Assembly: GCA_000934665.2 (NCBI GenBank)
Contig: JYFJ02004220.1
Span: 1-33,847, forward strand
Source: Catajapyx aquilonaris
Taxonomy: Eukaryota
DNA length: 33,847 bases
Direction of reading: 5' to 3'
Position 1 is the stretch's first letter, and each line of letters opens with the position of its first letter. Shown piece after piece: positions 8,716 to 24,949 of this stretch. Made by a program: the position numbers and the translations under genes. A model generated the notes under the pieces. The model searched no databases and had not been told where the DNA came from. It saw only the letters and a list, made by a program, of their open reading frames with translations.

Positions 8716-9338
8716 ATGAGGGTGCTGAGAATACTTCCAGTGCTCTTGCTGGTGCCAGCAGTAATACCAGATGACAGCTCATCCTGCTTCTGCGAGCTTC
8801 AAGGAAAGGTCGATGACTGCACCTGCCATGTTGACACAGTGGACCACTTCAACAATGCAAAGGTCTACCCCAGACTTTCAAGTCTGTTGTTGTCGGACTA
8901 TTTCCGCTTCTATCATGTGAATCTTTATCGTCCATGCCCATTTTGGGAAGATGACAGCAAATGTGCATTGAGATCGTGCCATGTTCAGTCATGCCCAGAC
9001 GAACAGGTTCCTTTCCCAATTAAGGCATCACAGTTCACACCTATTAGTGAGCATAGCAATCCATCATACAAATATAGTAAGGATGCCCAGTCTGAGCATG
9101 ACTGCAATGACGAGCTGGGCTTCCTGAACACCACTATAAGTGAGTCCACCTACGAGGAATTTGAGAAGTGGAAAGCCCATGATGATGCTAGGGATGATAG
9201 TTTTTGTGAGCCAGAAGATGAGCTGGCAGCAGAAATGGCGTATGTAGACCTGCTGCTGAACCCGGAGAGGTACACGGGTTACAAGGGACCATCGGCACAT
9301 CGTATTTGGAACAGCATTTATCAGGAGAACTGTTTCAA
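8716..9338 (+). CDS. Ero1L: Ero1-like ER oxidoreductin, coding exon 1
   Basis: Signal peptide MRVLRILPVLLLVPAVIP, CFC..DDCTC, CPFW..CALRSC (outer CxxxxC), YVDLLLNPERYTGY, IWNSIYQENCF. Donor AA|gtaaga. Confidence 0.96.
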
Positions 9339-9457
9339 GTAAGACATGCTTGAATGTGTTCCTGGAATAATTTGATTTTAGATTGATGTGTGATTGATTC
9401 CATGTAGTTCCTCATTGGCATCTTACTTATGGAAGTGGTTACTCTTAGATATGGATA

Positions 9458-9631
9458 CAGTGAAACCTGTGTATAGCAAGCATTGCATGGGACCAATTTT
9501 TCTTCCCATAGTAGATAGGTTTCTGCTGTATCCATCAAAAATGCATTGCATGTCCTATGCCTATTCCCAGAAATAATTCCACAATAGACAAGTTTCCACT
9601 AGAATCAGGGGCCATTACGGACAAGTTCACT
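9458..9631. mobile_element. Degenerate pogo/Tigger-like MITE
   Basis: Starts TA|CAGTGAAACCTGTGTA; decayed right end ggacaagttcact. Confidence 0.45.
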
Positions 9632-9797
9632 CATAATTTTGGGGCTGTGGAAGGGTGTATATGATCGCTGTTTATGATAGACCATTAAAATTGCATGGTT
9701 AAATTTACAGCTCTGGTTACATGCAGTGAACCTAACTGTCTATTCAGATCTCTCACATCACACCTGTAAGGAAATGGATGTAGTCTAGCTTGCTTAA

Positions 9798-10081
9798 CCC
9801 TTAACTAGTGACCTGGAAAATCCTAACACTCACGGTGACCTGGGTTGTGTAAAGACCCGAGGGGATTTTTAAAATATAAATTGCCTTTAATGATAAATAT
9901 TTGCTTTTTAATTCTTTTACACAACACCTGCAACTGTTTTCTACAATTTGGTTTAATTTTCAACTCTCTAGCTGCCGTAGAACGGAATTTAAAAAAATCA
10001 TATACCCAACTACAATTAAACATTTTATAACAAAAAAATTGCACCTGGGGTGTTGAAAGACCCCAGGTCACCAGTTAAGTG
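9798..10081. mobile_element. piggyBac-like MITE in an Ero1L intron
   Basis: TTAA at 9794-9797 and 10082-10085; TIR cccttaactagtgacctgg / ccaggtcaccagttaagtg. Confidence 0.8.
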
Positions 10082-10359
10082 TTAACACGAACTAAATGTA
10101 AAAACTAGTAAGCTCCCATATGCCACCAGCTCCGGCTCAGTGTAGTTGTTCATGTTTTAAGCAGTAGCCAGTAGGTGATGACAAATGTACACTAACACAT
10201 TTCATCCAGCTCATCACCTGTTACCTTGTTTCTAAATGCTTGCCCATAGGCCAGTATGGATTAGCTACTGACCACCTTGATTGTGCCCCAAAAGCGTCCT
10301 GGAATGTTTATGTTGAATCCTTGAGCCATGATGTGTAACTAACAGTTCATTATTTTCAG

Positions 10360-10406
10360 ACCTCAGCGAGGGTTTGGCCCTTACCTTGACTCTTCCAATG
10401 TCGGAG
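10360..10406 (+). CDS. Ero1L: Ero1L coding exon 2 (47 nt)
   Basis: Acceptor tattttcag, donor G|gtaagt. Encodes (K)PQRGFGPYLDSSNVG and is needed to bridge phase 2 to phase 1. Confidence 0.88.
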
Positions 10407-10472
10407 GTAAGTCTAAACTGCTTGTGCTGTATGTGAGAGTGCAAGTCTAAACTTATCCCGTTGTTGCTTCAG

Positions 10473-10487
10473 GGAAATTTGGTGAAG
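10473..10487 (+). CDS. Ero1L: Candidate 15-nt symmetric microexon of Ero1L (GKFGE)
   Basis: ttgttgcttcag|GGAAATTTGGTGAAG|gtgagc; phase 1-1, no stop, flanking introns 66 and 84 nt. Confidence 0.55.
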
Positions 10488-10571
10488 GTGAGCATGACAA
10501 TACCTCTGTTCTTCGTTGCATGCCTGCGCTGTTTGATGACGCCTCCCTGACACAGTATTTGGGTTTTTTAG

Positions 10572-11232
10572 ACATGTGCCTGGAAAAACGGGTGTTCTAC
10601 CGTGCCATATCTGGCATGCACGCCAGCATAAACATCCATCTGTGCGCTGAATACTTCACGCCTGGAAAGTCAAATCCCCTTGGATTGGATACATCTGAAG
10701 CAGAGAAGGGCAGCTGGGGGATGAATTTGACTGAGCTAAAGCGGCGGTTTGGACCTGAGAGCACAAATGGTGAAGGTCCACAATGGCTGCGAAACCTGTA
10801 CTTCCTATTCATGCTTGAGCTACGTGCACTTGCAAAAGCAGCACCGTATCTGAAGCGTGAGTTGTACTTCACATCAGAGGCTGAATCAGGCAACGTACGT
10901 GAGGCAGTTGAGGACTTGCTGAATGTAGCAACATCCTTTCCACACCACTTCAACGAGAGCACCATGTTCTCCTCACATGGGCGTAACCAGGAAGACTGGA
11001 AGCTGAAGGAAGAGTTCCGCATGCATTTCCGCAACATTTCCCGCATCATGGACTGCGTGGGATGCGATAAGTGCAAATTGTGGGGCAAGTTGCAGGTCCA
11101 GGGTCTGGGAACAGCCCTGAAGATTCTTTTCTCTGGAGAAAGCACCAGCAGGATGCCAAGAGGCCCGTCACTTCCTGTGAAGTTTCAATTGCGCAGAAAT
11201 GAGATTGTAGCCTTGTTCAACTCCATAGGGAG
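10572..11232 (+). CDS. Ero1L: Ero1L coding exon 3
   Basis: Acceptor ttttttag. Encodes MCLEKRVFYRAISGMHASI and FRNISRIMDCVGCDKCKLWGKLQ (CxxCxxC). Donor AG|gtatgt. Confidence 0.96.
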
Positions 11233-11878
11233 GTATGTGCAACCTGGTTTTTAAAATGTTACAAAGGATAGTTTCAAAACTCTGAAAGTGCAGTTGCAGG
11301 AGAGAAAATTAAACTACAGAATGAGTAATCACACATTGAAAGAAAATTGACTACATTATCCTCGTTATTTTTTTTACGAGAGTAAGGCTATGCTTTCCAA
11401 AGAGGATTCCAAAGCAGGATCAGAAATATTGAATATGTATTCCATTTGAAACTGATGTTTTTATCTTCATGTTGTATGATCTCATAACTAACAAGGGGAG
11501 TGCATTGGGTCACCTCGTGCTTTCGATTCAAACCTGGTGGGTCAGATAGAGCAGGAGATGCTGTATCTAGCAATGTTCCTGAGCTGCCAAAGTTTTGCAG
11601 ACTAGGGAGTATTTAACAGGCCCAAAAATTAAAATTGCATTTTAAAAAATGTGATTTTCAAAAAGCATGCCAATTAAAGTCTGAAAATTTTTGATGCTCG
11701 AAATAGGAGGTATGAATTTTTCAAGTTTGAAACATATGACCACTCATGACACCATTAGTATCTTCACTTCAATAATGGAGACTGCCTGACTGTAGACTAT
11801 TGGTGGCCATTTCTGTCCAGTATACAGACTGTGACACCAATCATGCATATAATCAGCAACATAATTTTCCACTTCCAG

Positions 11879-11930
11879 GTTATCAACCAGCATTTATGAA
11901 CTCGAGCGCTTCAGACAACTGCTCCGGTGA
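11879..11930 (+). CDS. Ero1L: Ero1L terminal coding exon
   Basis: Acceptor ttttccacttccag. Encodes (R)LSTSIYELERFRQLLR-stop, a typical Ero1 C-terminus. Total CDS 1383 nt. Confidence 0.92.
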
Positions 11931-12280
11931 GTCCCATCCATGCCACCAAACAATGGGACCATTTGAATGGCTCAAGAACCGCATAATATCCAAACCAATG
12001 AACAAAAATGTGCAATACCAAGATTCCAATGAGAAGGAAATGGCCTGCATTTTCCCACCTCAATATCAAGAAAAATTCATCACAGTAGTTTACATAACTG
12101 CACTTACTTCATGGCATTGTTAAGACCACACTATAGAAATTTTTACAACTGTGTAGATATTGTAAATGTTTATATTTATACATTGGTGGTGGGTAGAAGA
12201 GAAATTTAATTTATGGTCGGGGTGGTTGATAATGAATTCTAAATCTGGTGTTTGAAGAAGAGAATCTCAACACTGTTGCA

Positions 12281-12286
12281 AATAAA
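12281..12286 (+). terminator. Candidate Ero1L polyadenylation signal
   Basis: First AATAAA seen after the stop, about 350 nt downstream. Confidence 0.5.
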
Positions 12287-12399
12287 TGAGTTATACACAT
12301 TGAGCCATTTTATTCCTTTGGATGGGTTTTCCCCAGGCAGGGGGAAATTATCAAATTCCAGTGTACGAATTGGAGCCTCTTTTTTATTATGTTTTTAAA

Positions 12400-17269: not shown

Positions 17270-17677
17270 CTAAAAGCGTGCACGTATGTAAACGGCTGAC
17301 ACGTCATGCTCCCCATACCCCAGCCTCTTGGCGTGCTTGAAGACCTCATTGGCAGAAGCAGTCAGAGGCAGAGGCTGCTCCAACTGGTCCCCCATGGACA
17401 GGCTCAGCTTCAGGTCTTTCTGCATATGTTGCAGAGGGAGGTGGGTGGGGAAGCCTCCTTCAATGATGGCTCTCCCCTTCTCTACAATGGTGGGACATGC
17501 CAGAGAGGTGAGTTCCAAAATTTCCAAAACATCTTTTTGCTGAAGTCCAGCCCGGTCTGCCAGGGCCATCCCTTCTGCTAAGCCGGCCAACGTCACGCCA
17601 GCCATCAGCTGGAGGACCAGGTTCATTTTGGATGCATTTCCAACCTCCCCAAGATAGAAGGAGTTCTTTCCCATTGC
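17270..17677 (-). CDS. GLYR1: GLYR1/N-PAC/NDF terminal exon (helical dehydrogenase-fold domain)
   Basis: Acceptor tccttccag. Encodes AMGKNSFYLGEVGNASKMNL...QHMQKDLKLSLSMGD...DVSAVYIRARF, ending TAG TAG. Confidence 0.95.
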   Translation of the reverse strand, partial: AMGKNSFYLGEVGNASKMNLVLQLMAGVTLAGLAEGMALADRAGLQQKDVLEILELTSLACPTIVEKGRAIIEGGFPTHLPLQHMQKDLKLSLSMGDQLEQPLPLTASANEVFKHAKRLGYGEHDVSAVYIRARF

Positions 17678-19184
17678 CTGGAAGGAGAGCAGATATGATA
17701 CTGTCTAGTCAACTAACAAAATATCACGGCTAGCCCAAATTTACCACTACACCGCCATGCTGACCTATTAGATAGCCCATGCCTACAAAATTCTCTTGAC
17801 CTTCGCTGGTATAAGCACCATCGTCATCATGGTATGGTTCTCCTGGCCATATATAAACGAGCGCACGTGTGGATCAAATGGTTTTTAAATTGCAGTTTAT
17901 TTCTCGAACCTGCAATTTTTTCAGGCTGGATTTGGGCCCTTGTTCTACAGTATTGGATCATTCAATTACATATATCCTTCTTTTAGATGACATCTTTCAT
18001 GCACCATAGCAATCAAATCTTAATTTCCAAACCAAAAAATGGCATTCTGTACATCAGCAGACAATTCTAACCTTGCAGTGGAGTCCCCCCCTACTCCCTT
18101 CTCCCTTCTAATCCTGGAAGACTAAATTATGCTGCAGTAACACCTTTTTGGAAGATCAGCACTTCCACTCACAACTAAGCTTACTATTTTTACTCCCCTG
18201 AATTTTTGAAATGCTTTGCCTTTTCTAAATCTGCTTGGCCTATAGTGTTGTGCAAACATCACCTCGGCTGCTAATGCAGAGGCGCAACTAGGTTCTTCAT
18301 CCCCGGGGCAACCTAAGATTATGCACGCCCCCCCNCCCCTCCCCACCACCACACCCACCCGGGGACACAGAATTGGGGGTTAAAAGGTACATATTTTGTG
18401 GTGTTTTTTTTTGGTTTACGAATGGAAAAATATGAAATATTTGCATGGGAAGTTGCAGACAAATTATACCACTTCCACAGAAGATGCAAAAAATCATTGA
18501 CTTAATGGATGTTTTCTAAACAGTTTTATTCTGACTAAATACACCCATTGAATACTTCAGGTATCCAAAGATGAGCTTTTTCGCAACAAAAAATCTTTCT
18601 CAAAATTTGGCAAGCATTCTTTCCTACATTTTGTTACCTGAGCTTATAGTCATTTTGAAGGGATTTCAAGAGTATTCTTACAAATTTCTGTCATAACCAG
18701 GAGAGCTAGGGAGAAATTAAAAATAACAAAACAATCTAAAAATAAACACATCATTGCAACACACTGATCCAAACACACTACACTCTTCTTTTGTATTATT
18801 TTAGTTATGAATTGTGACACAGGGAATGTTGTGTAGATAGCCTATTATTACTGTCCGTGGGAAAATATTGGAAATTTTTGAACCTATCACATTCACAGAT
18901 ATAATTATGTCTTGTTTGACGCCAAATCACTTTATGCCTCTACCAAAGGTGACAAATGATGCTACTTGGGACATGTGTTAAGTGTTCTAACCAGTTTTTT
19001 AATGTATTTTTCAGGCATGTTTTCTCATATGACCATACTTTGACCAGGTGTATCTCTTCTTTGAATGCATATATTAATGATATTATTTGTGCTTACAACA
19101 TGCCCTTTAACAACGTTGTACATAATTGGTTTCATTTGTATAACCTTAATAATAACTCCATAATAAATTGCGTACTAAGTGAAT

Positions 19185-20381
19185 TTTCAGCAAAACAAGC
19201 CCTTTTGGCGATTTTTTTGAAGATGACTGTACCAGTAAATTACGGAATTGTGCATGCCGAATTTTGATATAATTTTATAATAGAACCCATGCTACTTTGT
19301 TATACAAAAAATAACGATTAAATATTTAAAATGGCTTCTTCGAGAAAATATTTATATGAAGTGTGCTATATTGTAGCACAATGACGAAATTTGTCATCTG
19401 AAAAAAATTTGTTATCTCACTTACAAAAGGTATGCACCAGGTTTTGACACTACTTCATTTTAAAACCTGTCTGTCCGTGTAAAATAAAAAAATAAAAAAT
19501 AAAAATAAAAAAAAGGCTTTTTTGAGAAAATAATTTTTGAAATATGCGTGTTTTCGCTTGTTGCCATATTTTCACCTCGCATATCTCAACTACACGCGGA
19601 GCTAGCAAAGGTTTTATTGCATAGCCTTTAGGGGGTCACCGAGTATATCACAAAATATAATCAGCATAACCGTCACGTTAACCATAACGCCGTAATAAAT
19701 TGCGAAATATGCGAATTTTGGCCAAAACATGCAATGTTGGAGATTTTTTTGCAGGTGACTGTACCATTAAATAAGGTAAATTTATGCATTGCATAACAGC
19801 ATGTTATTCCAAAAGCACGAGTTTAAAATTTCATGTTGGTTTTCAGAACGGTTCCCGAATTATACCCATTGAAAGCAATGGAAAAAGTGCACCTTCCCGT
19901 GAAGGTTATTTTGGTACCCCTAGAAAGAAATATTAATATCTCGATAACTAAATTTAATCTCGTAAAACTGATTGCTCCATAAGGGTTCAATTGGATGTGG
20001 GTTTCACATATATTTAAAAAAAAAAAATCGAAGACCATGACTGGGCACCCTCTGTCTGGATTGAAATGAAACCAGCCCGCTAATTCAAAATAAACATGCA
20101 CTTCCTGTTATACCTTCTTTTAAATGGGAACAGTTCATTTTTGTAGTGCAGAGTTTTCTTTCACGTATGCCGGAAACCGCATGGATCCAAAAACTACAAC
20201 CTATCTACATTTTGGTAGGCATGAAAATTATGAAACCAGATTGGATCCATGAAATGATTTTTTTTAAAAGGAATACACGAAGTTTCAGGTCATTATCATT
20301 TCAAGGTCACTGATTGCGATTAATTTTACATTTTTTTACTTTCTTTGGGGTCCTAAAAGACCCCACGTCCCGGTTCCACGG
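19185..20381. mobile_element. Longer relative of the 26869-27154 TTAA element (left boundary uncertain)
   Basis: End ggggtcctaaaagaccccacgtcccggttccacgg|TTAA. 20079-20116 is the reverse complement of 26972-27010. Internal direct repeats at about 19185-19262 and 19717-19792. Confidence 0.6.
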
Positions 20382-20754
20382 TTAACCCTATGCCCACTGG
20401 GGTCATTTTGGTGCTGTGAGTTTTAAAAACTTTTTCAATATTTCATGTCACTTTGGTTGTGACTTGATCACCGTAGCCTTGGGTATATAAATAAATTATA
20501 CCCAACCAACATTTCTTACCTTCTGCATATGTGTTTGTCAGTCACAATATTTACCAACTGAGAAAAGAATTCCATGATGTAAGCAAAGATTAATAGGGGT
20601 CTTCACACATCATATAGATTTTGTCATCAGATGATTTTTATTGTTATTGACGCCAATGGTAAATAACAAAAAACATTACCTAATTATGAAAGTTATATTA
20701 AATGTGAATGGTCCTAATGCCATGCAGAATTCACATGCCATGAAGGAAGCTTAC

Positions 20755-21216
20755 CTGGAAACAAGACTGGCAGTCGTCAAACAAAGACCGGTCTCCTGCA
20801 GCAAGGATGACCAGTGTGCCCTCTTCAGCTTGAGTCTTACTCCCCTGGATTTGAGCCTCCAGGTACCTCCCCCCTTTGGCCCCAATTGCTTCTGCTATGT
20901 CTTGGCTCGTTTCCGCATCGACACCAGTCATCTCCACATACCCTTTGGCCCCAGTCACCTCTTGCAGAACCCCACAATTCCCAAAAACCATGTCTTTGGC
21001 TGCTTGGGGATCTGCCACGCAGCTGAAGGTCACATCTGCTGCTAGAATAACATCTGAAGGGGTCATCCCCAGCTCTGCTCCAGCCTTGACAAAGTCACGG
21101 CACTTCTCTGGAGTACGGTTCCATACCACCACAGAATGGCCAGAGTTTAACAGATTTTTGACGATGCCGGAGCCCATCAAGCCGAGGCCTAGGAATCCAA
21201 ACTTCAGTCCAGAAGG
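20755..21216 (-). CDS. GLYR1: GLYR1 coding exon 3 (Rossmann NAD(P)-binding domain)
   Basis: Acceptor ttcaatttag. Encodes PSGLKFGFLGLGLMGSGIVKNLLNSGHSVVVWNRT. Donor CAG|gtaagc; 462 nt, phase 0-0. Confidence 0.95.
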
Positions 21217-22175
21217 CTAAATTGAACAAAAGAACAAGTTATGGCACACCTATGTCATGCAGCTGAACTGGCCTAGACCAGGCAAGTCAACATTAACCTA
21301 TTGTATGCATAAAATCCCCCCCCCCCCCTCAAAAACCNCAAAAACCTATGACTGACACAGTAACCTGAATTCCTCTGTTGCCAGAGAGAAAGCAGCTGAT
21401 GTATAAAAGGTATATCATGTGGATCAAGAACATGTAATTCCCAATGGCAGGGCCAAAACCAGTAGCATTCTTAAAGCTAAATAATAATAAAACCAAAGAA
21501 ACAGTGGGAAACAAGTCATTCCAAACTTCCAAAAAATTTATGAAGCTGAAATTGGAAATTTTCTACCACAGAATGATGTGCTTTCTGGGTGGCTTTTCCA
21601 CTTCAATACGGTACCACATCACAACAGTCACACTTTTTCAGAATGAATGGCCATTCTGAATTTTTTTGCCCCTTGAAATAAACCTAGAAATTCCTGCTGA
21701 CCTATTCAATCTGGCTTTGGCATGGACAGTTGCTCCCACTGTTGCAAAATATCCTGCCCTAAAATTAGTTAACATGACTGTTTTTATTATTCAATATAAT
21801 TGCCGTTAATTGCAGGTAAGTCTTCAAAGAGACCCACAGCTGTAATGATAGCTGCCTATGCATTGCCAATGACATTCACCTCCGGCCAAGGGTGATGACC
21901 TCTTCTACAATGAAACTTTTTTAAAGTATGTGCAAGCTGTAATACAGGTTGCTAAAATTCCAAATGAACACATTTTAAAAATAATATGTAATAAATAATT
22001 GGACGCACCGTGATAGGCCTAGTGGAGCCAAATGGCTTCAATTTACTTCTTGTTTGTGAGGAAAACCGGAATGTCCCATAATTTGAAATGCACAGCAGTC
22101 AGTGCTGATGACTAGCAGCAAAAAAAAGCAACTACCTGCAGACTTGGTGGGAAATCAAGGGAAAACACCCTACCC

Positions 22176-23222
22176 CAGGGCTATTCAACTGGCAGACCGC
22201 AGTGCAATTTTGTCCGGACCTCATTGATGTACAGGACATCATAGAGGACGAAAATGTTTTAATGAGGGGTGCTCTTCCATAACGAGGTAAGTGCCAAAAA
22301 TGAAATTTTACAGGGGAAGCTTTTTTCCATTTTGTGAGGAAACTTGTGTACCTTGAGGACTACAATTTTTATTTCAAAAACCATACAACAATACTAACCA
22401 AAATAACACTTCAAATTATGCTTGTATTAAAACGCATAGTAGTAAAAAATTTGCAAAAACAGAAAAAGTTCCAAAACGAGGTAAGTGCCACATTGGATTG
22501 CAATGAGAATCAGTATGTTAAATTAAGATGAGAAACTAAAGGAGGTTTGCAAGTTGAAAGAGAGTTGAAAAAAGCGTGAAAGAGCTTTGCTCTGTGTCTT
22601 GTAGCAAGTGAGTGGCATTTACATGATATCTGTAATTATTTAATTATTATATTAGTGGCTATAACCGTGGCATACAAAATTGCTGTTCATGCATTGTTGT
22701 GGAATCATGCGAGCTGCAGACCTCTTATTTATATTTTGTCCACATTTTATAAAAGTGTGGAGGATGATACTAATTATGTAACAGAGGAATAAAACGTGGA
22801 GCAATGTCCTCCATCTCTCTTGGCATTTGCCTCGTTCTGACCCGTTGTATGAGTGATGGCTGAAAACTTTCGGTATTGATACTTTTGGAACGGAGGCTCA
22901 TAGGACAGCCACATTTTTAGGGCAACTGCAGGGTGGCATTTGCTGCGAGAAAACACAAAAAAATGATTTTCCGCATAAATGGCACTTACCACGTTATGGA
23001 AGAGCACCCCTCATATGTTCTGTCTTGATAGGCCCTTCAACCCTTTCTGCACGAGTTTTCATTTCCAAGAAATGAATCCTACTTGAATGGCCTGGGCAGT
23101 CCTTGGTAGGAATGCGGTACCATATGGAATCCATTTCCTTACCCGCGCCAGGGGGTTCAGACCTTCCATGCCCCAGGAAAGGTAAATACTGGACCTTGTC
23201 ATAAACTAGTTGAATATCCCTG
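22176..23222. mobile_element. hAT (Charlie-like) non-autonomous element hosting a nested MITE
   Basis: TIR cagggctattcaact / agttgaatatccctg; 8-bp TSD ccctaccc / cgctaccc (7 of 8 match). Confidence 0.7.
22263..23013. mobile_element. mariner-like MITE
   Basis: 34-bp TIR tgaggggtgctcttccataacg.ggtaagtgcca and its complement, with TA on the right. An internal copy of aacgaggtaagtgcca lies near 22475. Confidence 0.8.
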
Positions 23223-23649
23223 CGCTACCCTTTCACCTGCTGAGGATTTCATAACCAAAGATCCCAATGATCTGGAATGTGCACCTACATGAATACCCAT
23301 ACCTCAAAAATGAAAATGTCATGTGCACTGGTGGATCAGAACTGTAGCTTGTATAATACCACACTCCAGAACAGCCCCTCCTACCCTAGCCTGATGGAAA
23401 CCCCCCCAAACTTGGTTGATCTCCACCACCCCTAGTTTGGCGCTGCAGGTGCTCCACGGTACCCAGACAGATTGGGTGGACGACTTCCTAACCAACCCAA
23501 ACCATCCTTTCCACTGCAGCTGGGTCCAGAGCACATTCACACAGTCCACTTCCAGCTGCCCGAACTGTTTGGGAACAGCAGAGTGCCAAACTAGAGGTGT
23601 AGAGATCAAGTTCCGCAAAATGGGAGGGAGTTACAAGACCTGAGCATTA

Positions 23650-23729
23650 AGCCCAGTCCACACGAGCGAGTTTTCTCGTCCATGAGGCTTCCAAAGGCTC
23701 CGAGAAAACTCATTCATGTGGACTGGGCT
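23650..23729. mobile_element. 80-bp PIF/Harbinger mini-MITE
   Basis: agcccagtccaca..gagttttctcg / cgagaaaactc..tgtggactgggct; TTA on both sides. Confidence 0.8.
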
Positions 23730-24017
23730 TTAGACCTTGCTCCACAACTCAACTCTGTTGGTCCAATCCAGCTGCATCCTAAGAAGAGTGTGGTGCATGG
23801 GGTTCTGCCTATCCCCAAACCCACCTATCTTACATCCTTCCCTCCCGTTGTAGGTGCGTGGGACCAATGCCACATTTATTGCCACATAATCATGGCATTG
23901 GTGTCACAAATCCATTCCCACACTCAAATATACCACTACATCCTAGCATGAAACTGTAATGCAACGTCACTGGAAACACTAGTCATGCAAGGAGAAACAA
24001 ATGAGCCACCTCCTCAC

Positions 24018-24353
24018 CTGGATATTTTTATCTCGAAGAGTCTGAGAAACACTTTCAACATCCAGTGGAACTGCATCTGGTTTGCTGATCCCCGTAGGAC
24101 GGTCAAGGAAGTTGGATACAACTCCAGGCTTACGGTATCCACTGTGGTTGGTAAGTGCTGCTCCCTCTCCTGACCCACTGGGCAGGCTGTCCACCTGAGA
24201 AGCATCTGCTGACGTGGACCGACGGGGCTTCTTTGTGGGTGGAACAGGTGGCGTTGTGGCCATTGCCCCATTGTTAGATGTGTTTGGGGCACTGGTGCTT
24301 GTTTCTGAGTTGGACCTCTTACCAGATGACTTGGGCCGACGCGGCTTCTTCTC
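24018..24353 (-). CDS. GLYR1: GLYR1 coding exon 2 (basic, low-complexity linker)
   Basis: Acceptor tctccag. Encodes EKKPRRPKSSGKR...NFLDRP...LDVESVSQTLRDKNIQ. Donor CAG|gtgagg; 336 nt, open, phase 0-0. Confidence 0.88.
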
Positions 24354-24477
24354 CTGGAGAGTTGGTTAGACAAATGTTATTTATTGTAAGAGTGAGGCCA
24401 GCACGTCATGCAATAGGTACATGAAGGCTGCCCCTTAATTTGCTTACCCTCACAGGCCATAAAGCAAGTTCAATTAC

Positions 24478-24873
24478 CTTCGCAGTTACCTTTGGTTCCG
24501 CAGGCGTCTCATTCTGAACTTTTTCCTGGTCTAGCTTCCATCTCCCGCCACTCAGAGCCCCGAAGAGCGTTTCGTCATCCAAACTGGGATCCGCCTCCTT
24601 TCTCCGAATGTACTCCTCAATGGCTTCCACTGCATCTCTTAATGTTCCCGACTTGTTCTTTGTAAACTGCTCTTTAAATTCCAGGTAAGGCTTGATGTTA
24701 TTCTCTTCTATCCATGCGTAGTTGTCGGTTCCAAAAAACCAAATACAATGTATATTCTTTTTCTGGGTTGGCCGCTTCAACTCCTTGGGCTGCTCCACAG
24801 CCTTCCCAGGCCAGGGTGGAAATCCTTTCATCTTTGCCCACACGAGGTCACCAACCTTGACCACCCCTGACAT
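24478..24873 (-). CDS. GLYR1: GLYR1 coding exon 1 (PWWP domain)
   Basis: Encodes MSGVVKVGDLVWAKMKGFPPWPGK...IWFFGTDNYAWI. Donor choice is ambiguous (exon end 24490, 24478 or 24448). Upstream acceptor tcacag at 24905. Confidence 0.93.
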
Positions 24874-24949
24874 TGTCCTCACTTAGGGTTGACAAAACTC
24901 ACACCTGTGACAACCTTTCCCACTAACTCAACTACACTGGTGGCGCCCA

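Follow-up and report, generated by a model that had tools for sequence, protein, structure and literature searches.

The Ero1 gene and its transcript

The window analysed here, a stretch of 33,847 nt from Catajapyx aquilonaris, contains an Ero1 gene with four coding exons (Table 1), read from an ATG at 8716 into a product of 460 residues. The locus was the sole copy found in the genome assembly. Its assignment to the Ero1 family was supported by PF04137, which was carried by 120 of 120 homologues among the best listed, and the hallmarks of the family, namely the inner active-site CxxC and the distal cysteine pair, were present. The closest relatives found reached a best identity of 63-65%. In the gene tree, the sequence fell among pancrustacean-like rows, belonging to none of the insect, branchiopod or malacostracan groups, and no starred set contained it; this placement, drawn from a single gene, hints weakly that the owner of the gene may be a non-insect-like arthropod.

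Evidence of expression was provided by X1, the sole public run containing the gene, for which the kind of library is unrecorded and which is stored as contigs from which rare forms are dropped. An X1 contig of 2,072 nt, with a depth of 58.5, joined 9338 to 10360, 10406 to 10572 and 11232 to 11879, and ended in poly(A) at 12303. As this contig is both spliced and poly(A)-ended, X1 was read as transcript-derived. Its junctions indicate that the 165-nt intron between the second and third coding exons is real, and that the form which skips the candidate exon described below is expressed.

Intron 1 of the gene also harbours an element of about 290 nt (window positions 9793-10085) with imperfect terminal inverted repeats bearing 44-nt arms, which looks like a MITE-type repeat; a second X1 contig matched it with 8 substitutions plus gaps.

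Table 1. Positions in the window of the Ero1 exons, the candidate exon and the neighbouring splicing elements
Feature	Position	Strand	Basis and remarks
Ero1 first coding exon	8716..9338	+	ATG and ORF, X1 junction 9338/10360, PF04137 homologues; 3' end past ENCF, Cys206 = human Cys208
47-nt Ero1 exon, 16-residue base loop	10360..10406	+	Joined on both sides in X1; donor at the 87th percentile
Sub-intron A, 66 nt	10407..10472	+	11-nt repeat; no AG over 10446-10470; CAG acceptor (15th percentile) with UGC at -8 to -6
Candidate 15-nt cassette microexon, adding GKFGE	10473..10487	+	Phase 1-1, splice scores; skipped in X1; inserts of other taxa at the same junction
Sub-intron B, 84 nt	10488..10571	+	Donor ranked at the 92nd percentile; stop-free in frame; CTGAC at 10547 fits CURAY
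UGCAUG, Rbfox-type motif	10517..10522	+	30 nt downstream of the microexon donor
Ero1 exon starting DMCLEKR	10572..11232	+	X1 junctions, alignment of a relative to 3AHQ; Cys matching human Cys241, inner active-site CxxC
Ero1 last exon and 3' UTR	11879..12303	+	X1 junction, poly(A) end at 12303; stop codon near 11928-11930 (translation)

Splice signals and candidate regulators

The initial annotation had proposed that the 165-nt intron (10407-10571) hides a short frame-preserving exon. The sequence bears this architecture out: a CAG acceptor, the 15 nt of 10473-10487 and a GTGAGC donor divide the intron into sub-introns of 66 and 84 nt, with phase 1 on both sides and no stop codon. Translation likewise agrees with the predicted insertion of GKFGE upstream of DMCLEKR, which would lengthen the protein from 460 to 465 residues. 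With a cassette microexon defined as an exon of 3-27 nt with AG/GT borders, a preserved reading frame and spliceable flanking introns, 10473-10487 corresponds to this definition on every point.

Splice sites and intron lengths were compared with 39 reference introns inferred from this genome's myosin genes, identified by HMM matches and retained only when adjacent matches joined in frame. Using weight matrices built on these introns, the 10488 donor ranked at the 92nd percentile, in agreement with the strong donor claimed at the outset, and the candidate acceptor (10472) ranked at the 15th, on a par with the proven acceptor at 10572. The lengths of the reference introns peaked at 56-64 nt, 19 of 39 being no longer than 66 nt, 30 no longer than 84 nt and 37 shorter than 165 nt. 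Sub-introns of 66 and 84 nt are thus usual in this genome, whereas an undivided intron of 165 nt exceeds 37 of the 39, which favours a cassette exon.

Chance occurrence was evaluated in two ways. In a background of 360,000 nt scored with the weight matrices, no element matched the candidate at both sites, and 12 reached the lower quartile of real sites. A rule set, written after the candidate had been seen (YAG and a pyrimidine-rich, AG-free acceptor region, with a GTRAG donor 3-27 nt away), retrieved 8 elements from both strands of a 359,876-nt background and was matched in 0.3% of 20,000 shuffles of the 165-nt intron; when the exon was further required to end in AG, none was found in either the background or the shuffles. 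Scaling from 8 per 360 kb, about 1.5 elements of the loose level are expected by chance per 34-kb window, both strands included. Because such loose matches are expected window-wide, the signal of the candidate counts mainly since other evidence singles out this intron.

Some of the signals initially cited fared less well. The ctaaac, a branch-point look-alike, corresponds neither to CUAAY, from which it departs by one mismatch, nor to CURAY. It belongs to an exact 11-nt direct repeat (10409-10419 and 10443-10453), the second copy of which supplies it, and it may be a by-product of local duplication. No CURAY was found in sub-intron A. The UGC named there as frequent next to the 3' splice site of neural microexons is indeed present, and as evidence it is weak, the same triplet being found in 7 of the 39 ordinary acceptors. 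The segment before CLEKR, described as variable, does vary in sequence, but its length is constant, at 16 residues in 85 of the 104 loops that could be parsed from the first 120 homologues. A GC-type donor look-alike, for the use of which no evidence was found, also arises from the repeat copy at 10441-10453. Recursive splicing at the 10472 acceptor was considered and rejected, as this acceptor is followed by GGAAAT and not by GT.

The regulator named in the initial annotation, Srrm234 with an eMIC exon, was found in the genome, with cwf21 and SRRM_C on one contig. In this locus (contig C584, 66820-81900), cwf21 lies at 66820 and SRRM_C scores above the cut-off at 80185; a proximal non-eMIC exon at about 80433, with tandem TAG/CAG acceptors and an AATAAA-type signal at 81012, precedes a distal exon at about 81776. 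The latter contains ARKRPIPY, which we take to be the eMIC motif marking the distal exon of Srrm234. This 3'-end layout is the same as in the fly, and a proximal non-eMIC exon followed by a distal eMIC exon is stated for holometabolous insects at least, in the accessible part of the source (PMC8797185), whereas the genome studied here does not look insect-like.

According to the same accessible part, fly eMIC exons show enrichments, as opposed to strict rules, in short introns, a weak acceptor, UGC and a strong upstream donor, and further enrichments in strong CUAAY branch points, a UCUC-rich tract and a weak donor of their own (PMC8797185). The candidate shares the former features, with introns of 66 and 84 nt, UGC at -8 to -6 of an acceptor that ranks at the 15th percentile, and an upstream donor at the 87th percentile. 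By contrast, it departs from the latter: its own donor stands at the 92nd percentile, no UCUC lies upstream, and CUAAY is absent from both sub-introns. In Table S2 of that work, within the part available, Drosophila Ero1L appears only with a 264-nt HighPSI exon, and no microexon is listed for it (PMC8797185).

Another putative regulator is suggested by the UGCAUG of sub-intron B, a motif that 156 of 4284 background tiles (84 nt each; 3.6%) contain; a further GCAUG (10492) overlaps the microexon donor. In the accessible part of a mammalian study, UGCAUG is enriched downstream of alternative micro-exons (PMC4317164). The candidate, a short exon that keeps the frame, resembles such RBFOX-enhanced exons in having UGCAUG close by in the intron downstream; it differs from them in its arthropod host.

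The loop in other animals

The position of the insert in the protein was determined by aligning a relative to PDB 3AHQ and counting positions by hand. A three-residue offset of the 3AHQ chain, taken from its length, was assumed. On this basis, the insert is flanked by the equivalents of human Cys208 and Cys241, two cysteines that showed no variation across an alignment of 56 Ero1 proteins (56 of 56). The two cysteines and their flanking motifs align with those of human Ero1-alpha, but the spacing between them is 33 residues in the human protein versus 20 or 25 in Catajapyx. In the accessible parts of the corresponding reports, the human Cys208-Cys241 disulfide restricts the access of O2 to FAD, is opened by PDI and communicates with other regulatory disulfides, the loop recruiting PDI and GPx8 (PMC4683387); on the other hand, the C208A/C241A mutant is described as unstable, with 43% activity, and the role of this bond as the last regulatory disulfide is doubted (PMC6238587).

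The same junction was then considered in 17 same-species isoform pairs, which we picked from cluster listings. A short insert of 3-6 residues at this junction is the only or main difference in seven of them, all RefSeq pairs: six residues in Pollicipes, Penaeus chinensis, P. japonicus, P. indicus and Oratosquilla, five in Mytilus californianus and three in Lingula. No insert was seen at the junction in the other ten (four insects, two chelicerates, Nematostella, Procambarus, Panulirus and Artemia), every insect and chelicerate pair among the 17 being insert-free there. The crustacean pairs, such as those of Pollicipes (XP_037085536/XP_037085550), P. chinensis (XP_047474440/XP_047474441), P. 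japonicus (XP_042855998/XP_042856006) and Oratosquilla (XP_076029531/XP_076029532), are like the candidate in having an optional in-frame insert at the same junction, before xxCLE[K/E]R, with a first residue that fits phase 1. They differ from it in that their inserts measure 18 nt, encode ADPFLM, ANDFLK or VHNYLK and come from automatic annotation, whereas that of Catajapyx measures 15 nt and encodes GKFGE. In the Logan assemblies, from unspecified tissues, the penaeid insert form was found on 72 contigs, versus 39 for the commonest skip form.

In a redundant set of 373 proteins, not restricted to arthropods, the loop from the NCF motif to xxCxExR measured 16 residues in 208 of the 351 proteins that could be parsed, and the skipped form of Catajapyx also has a 16-residue loop. 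Neither GKFGE nor a close match to it occurred in any of these 351 loops from relatives. Mytilus combines loop modules of 5 and 9 residues, and the loop of Triops is four residues longer than that of Lepidurus. The first insert module starts with G, A or V in nine of nine distinct cases, which is what a phase-1 junction demands when the exon before it ends in G; this count omits a cross-species snail case in which the module starts with R and the upstream base is different. Several insert modules share with GKFGE only an aromatic residue third from the end, a link which is only suggestive. The position of the exon is common to inserts of other taxa and its sequence is not; judging from these protein isoforms, the inserts of other species may be cassette exons or the result of shifted splice sites. 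At the genomic level, a metagenome scan retained 80 of 449 loci, including only three arthropod-type genomic loci with this intron, all cladoceran-like. The position of the host intron and its phase 1 were the same in all three, and their introns of 61-62 nt leave no room for an exon.

Loop isoforms have also been reported in molluscs. In the accessible part of PMC6275033, the Ero1 isoforms X1 and X2 of Conus geographus and those of Aplysia and Biomphalaria present short indels in the Cys208-Cys241 loop, and regulatory differences between them are proposed by the authors. Both Conus forms were cloned from the venom gland, and the longer X2 failed at expression (PMC6275033). Like the two forms considered here, these isoforms differ only by short indels in a flexible loop; unlike GKFGE, the Conus insert comprises 7 residues, and the accessible text does not contain the string 'splic' (PMC6275033). 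In vertebrates, fish ERO1B records show loops of 16, 20 and 28 residues, of which the short ones may be prediction misses. These lengths suggest that the human loop could consist of a 16-residue base plus modules of 4 and 9 residues, and vertebrate Ero1 may carry exons of 12 and 27 nt in the same slot.

Other departures from the usual loop were observed in passing. The loop measures 60 residues in Lycorma X3 and 33 in Lingula, in Artemia the base exon is also annotated in an alternative form of 28 residues, and the stick insect Bacillus rossius has isoforms without the segment carrying the second cysteine.

Inclusion, competing readings and other features of the window

The splice-site scores, together with the seven isoform pairs out of 17, make an alternative frame-preserving microexon at the 10406/10572 junction likely, as had been proposed from the sequence, and we consider it probable that the single Ero1 gene does use 10473-10487 as an alternative cassette microexon. 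In X1, a single contig spans this junction and skips 10473-10487, and no inclusion contig was found among contigs that drop rare forms; the missing inclusion contig is not evidence of absence. By default, as X1 shows, the strong 10406 donor is spliced to 10572 and the microexon is skipped. Certain cell types would instead use the weak CAG acceptor at 10472 together with the strong 10488 donor, inclusion being aided by Srrm234-eMIC, through the upstream UGC, and/or by an Rbfox protein, through the downstream UGCAUG. With such help, neurons and/or muscle would be the likeliest sites of inclusion. Inclusion of GKFGE would widen the spacing of the distal cysteines from 20 to 25 residues. From a mechanistic point of view, we infer that this lengthening changes Ero1 activity: in what is the least certain step, a longer, glycine-rich loop may alter the opening of the disulfide or the docking of partners, which in turn may tune the oxidase rate and H2O2 output. 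An AlphaFold2 model of the penaeid insert form, with a pLDDT below 50 over 219-234 and a low-confidence helix across the insert, is too weak to carry this mechanism.

A narrower form of this explanation, a neuron-only exon dependent on Srrm234-eMIC, seems doubtful to us, despite the eMIC exon and the fly-like last-exon layout present in the genome and despite short flanking introns, a weak acceptor, a strong upstream donor and a UGC that all fit the fly code. The exon's own donor is indeed strong, the UCUC tract and CUAAY are absent upstream, and UGC is shared with 7 of 39 ordinary acceptors. Moreover, the Conus venom gland yielded both loop isoforms (PMC6275033, accessible part), the penaeid insert form lies on more Logan contigs (72 versus 39, from unspecified tissues), fly Ero1L is listed only with its 264-nt HighPSI exon (PMC8797185, accessible part), and the downstream UGCAUG points to an alternative regulator.

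It is unlikely, in our view, that the element is a pseudo-exon, that is, a chance or decayed splice-like pair included below useful levels. Such a pair would agree with the skipping-only pattern of X1, with the lack of a sequence counterpart in relatives, with the roughly 1.5 loose-level chance elements per 34-kb window and with the location of the branch-point look-alike in a local repeat. However, the chance of finding such an element in this single intron is about 0.001-0.006, the isoform pairs of other taxa independently single out the same intron, both sub-introns are usual in size, and an additional UGCAUG, found in 3.6% of background tiles, is present. Far less probable still is the use of the CAG at 10472 as an alternative acceptor combined with retention of sub-intron B, which would add 33 residues and one extra cysteine instead of five residues. 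An open frame does run from 10451 across sub-intron B into the next exon, and long inserts occur at the same place in Lycorma X3 and Lingula (loops of 60 and 33 residues). Against this, the 10488 donor ranks at the 92nd percentile, sub-intron B is of usual length and contains a CURAY, simple arithmetic gives a chance of about one in four that 84 nt hold no stop in a given frame, and no piece of an X1 contig covers 10405-10569, an absence which weighs little.

Beyond the cassette exon itself, the Ero1 intron may act as a slot which different lineages fill with different short inserts. A wider version of this idea, which we would not bet on but think worth stating, is that the intron preceding the Cys241 equivalent is an old microexon slot, refilled with exons of 9-27 nt across arthropods, molluscs, brachiopods and vertebrates, and that splicing sets the length of the O2/peroxidase loop and thereby a cell-type set-point, here by means of eMIC and/or Rbfox. 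The lineages concerned would be this arthropod, barnacles and malacostracans, notostracans, molluscs, brachiopods and vertebrates. Such a multi-phylum slot is our own synthesis, and it is built on protein isoforms as opposed to genomic alignments. If it were true, Ero1 in excitable or secretory cells would work at another set-point of oxidase activity and H2O2.

Work on the regulation of Ero1 has dealt with redox switches formed by cysteines. Should the length of the Cys208-Cys241 loop be set by short exons, splicing would act as a second control, specific to the cell type, over the production of disulfides and the release of H2O2 in the ER. In a search of mainly openly readable literature, no paper linking Ero1 to microexons was found. 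The term 'ero1' was absent from the supplementary files of PMC12626424, from those of PMC7821500 (the tables of which may use Ensembl ids) and from the accessible portions of the supplements of PMC4317164 and PMC7935315; it occurred in promoter rows only in the accessible portion of the PMC13281805 supplement, and the accessible portions of PMC2845084 and PMC11046445 held nothing on Ero1 splicing. The loop isoforms themselves are not new, as they are published for molluscs (PMC6275033) and annotated in RefSeq for crustaceans. Natural pairs with and without an insert (penaeid +6, mussel +5/+9, Catajapyx +5) are well suited to testing the role of Cys208-Cys241, which is disputed between the accessible parts of PMC4683387 and PMC6238587.

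Elsewhere in the window, a multi-exon gene on the minus strand (about 17270-24882) combines a PWWP-like N-terminal ORF with a 3-hydroxyisobutyrate-dehydrogenase-like C-terminal part, and presumably resembles GLYR1/NP60. An X1 contig spanning 12375-13443, just beyond the poly(A) site of Ero1, possibly represents the 3' UTR of this minus-strand gene.
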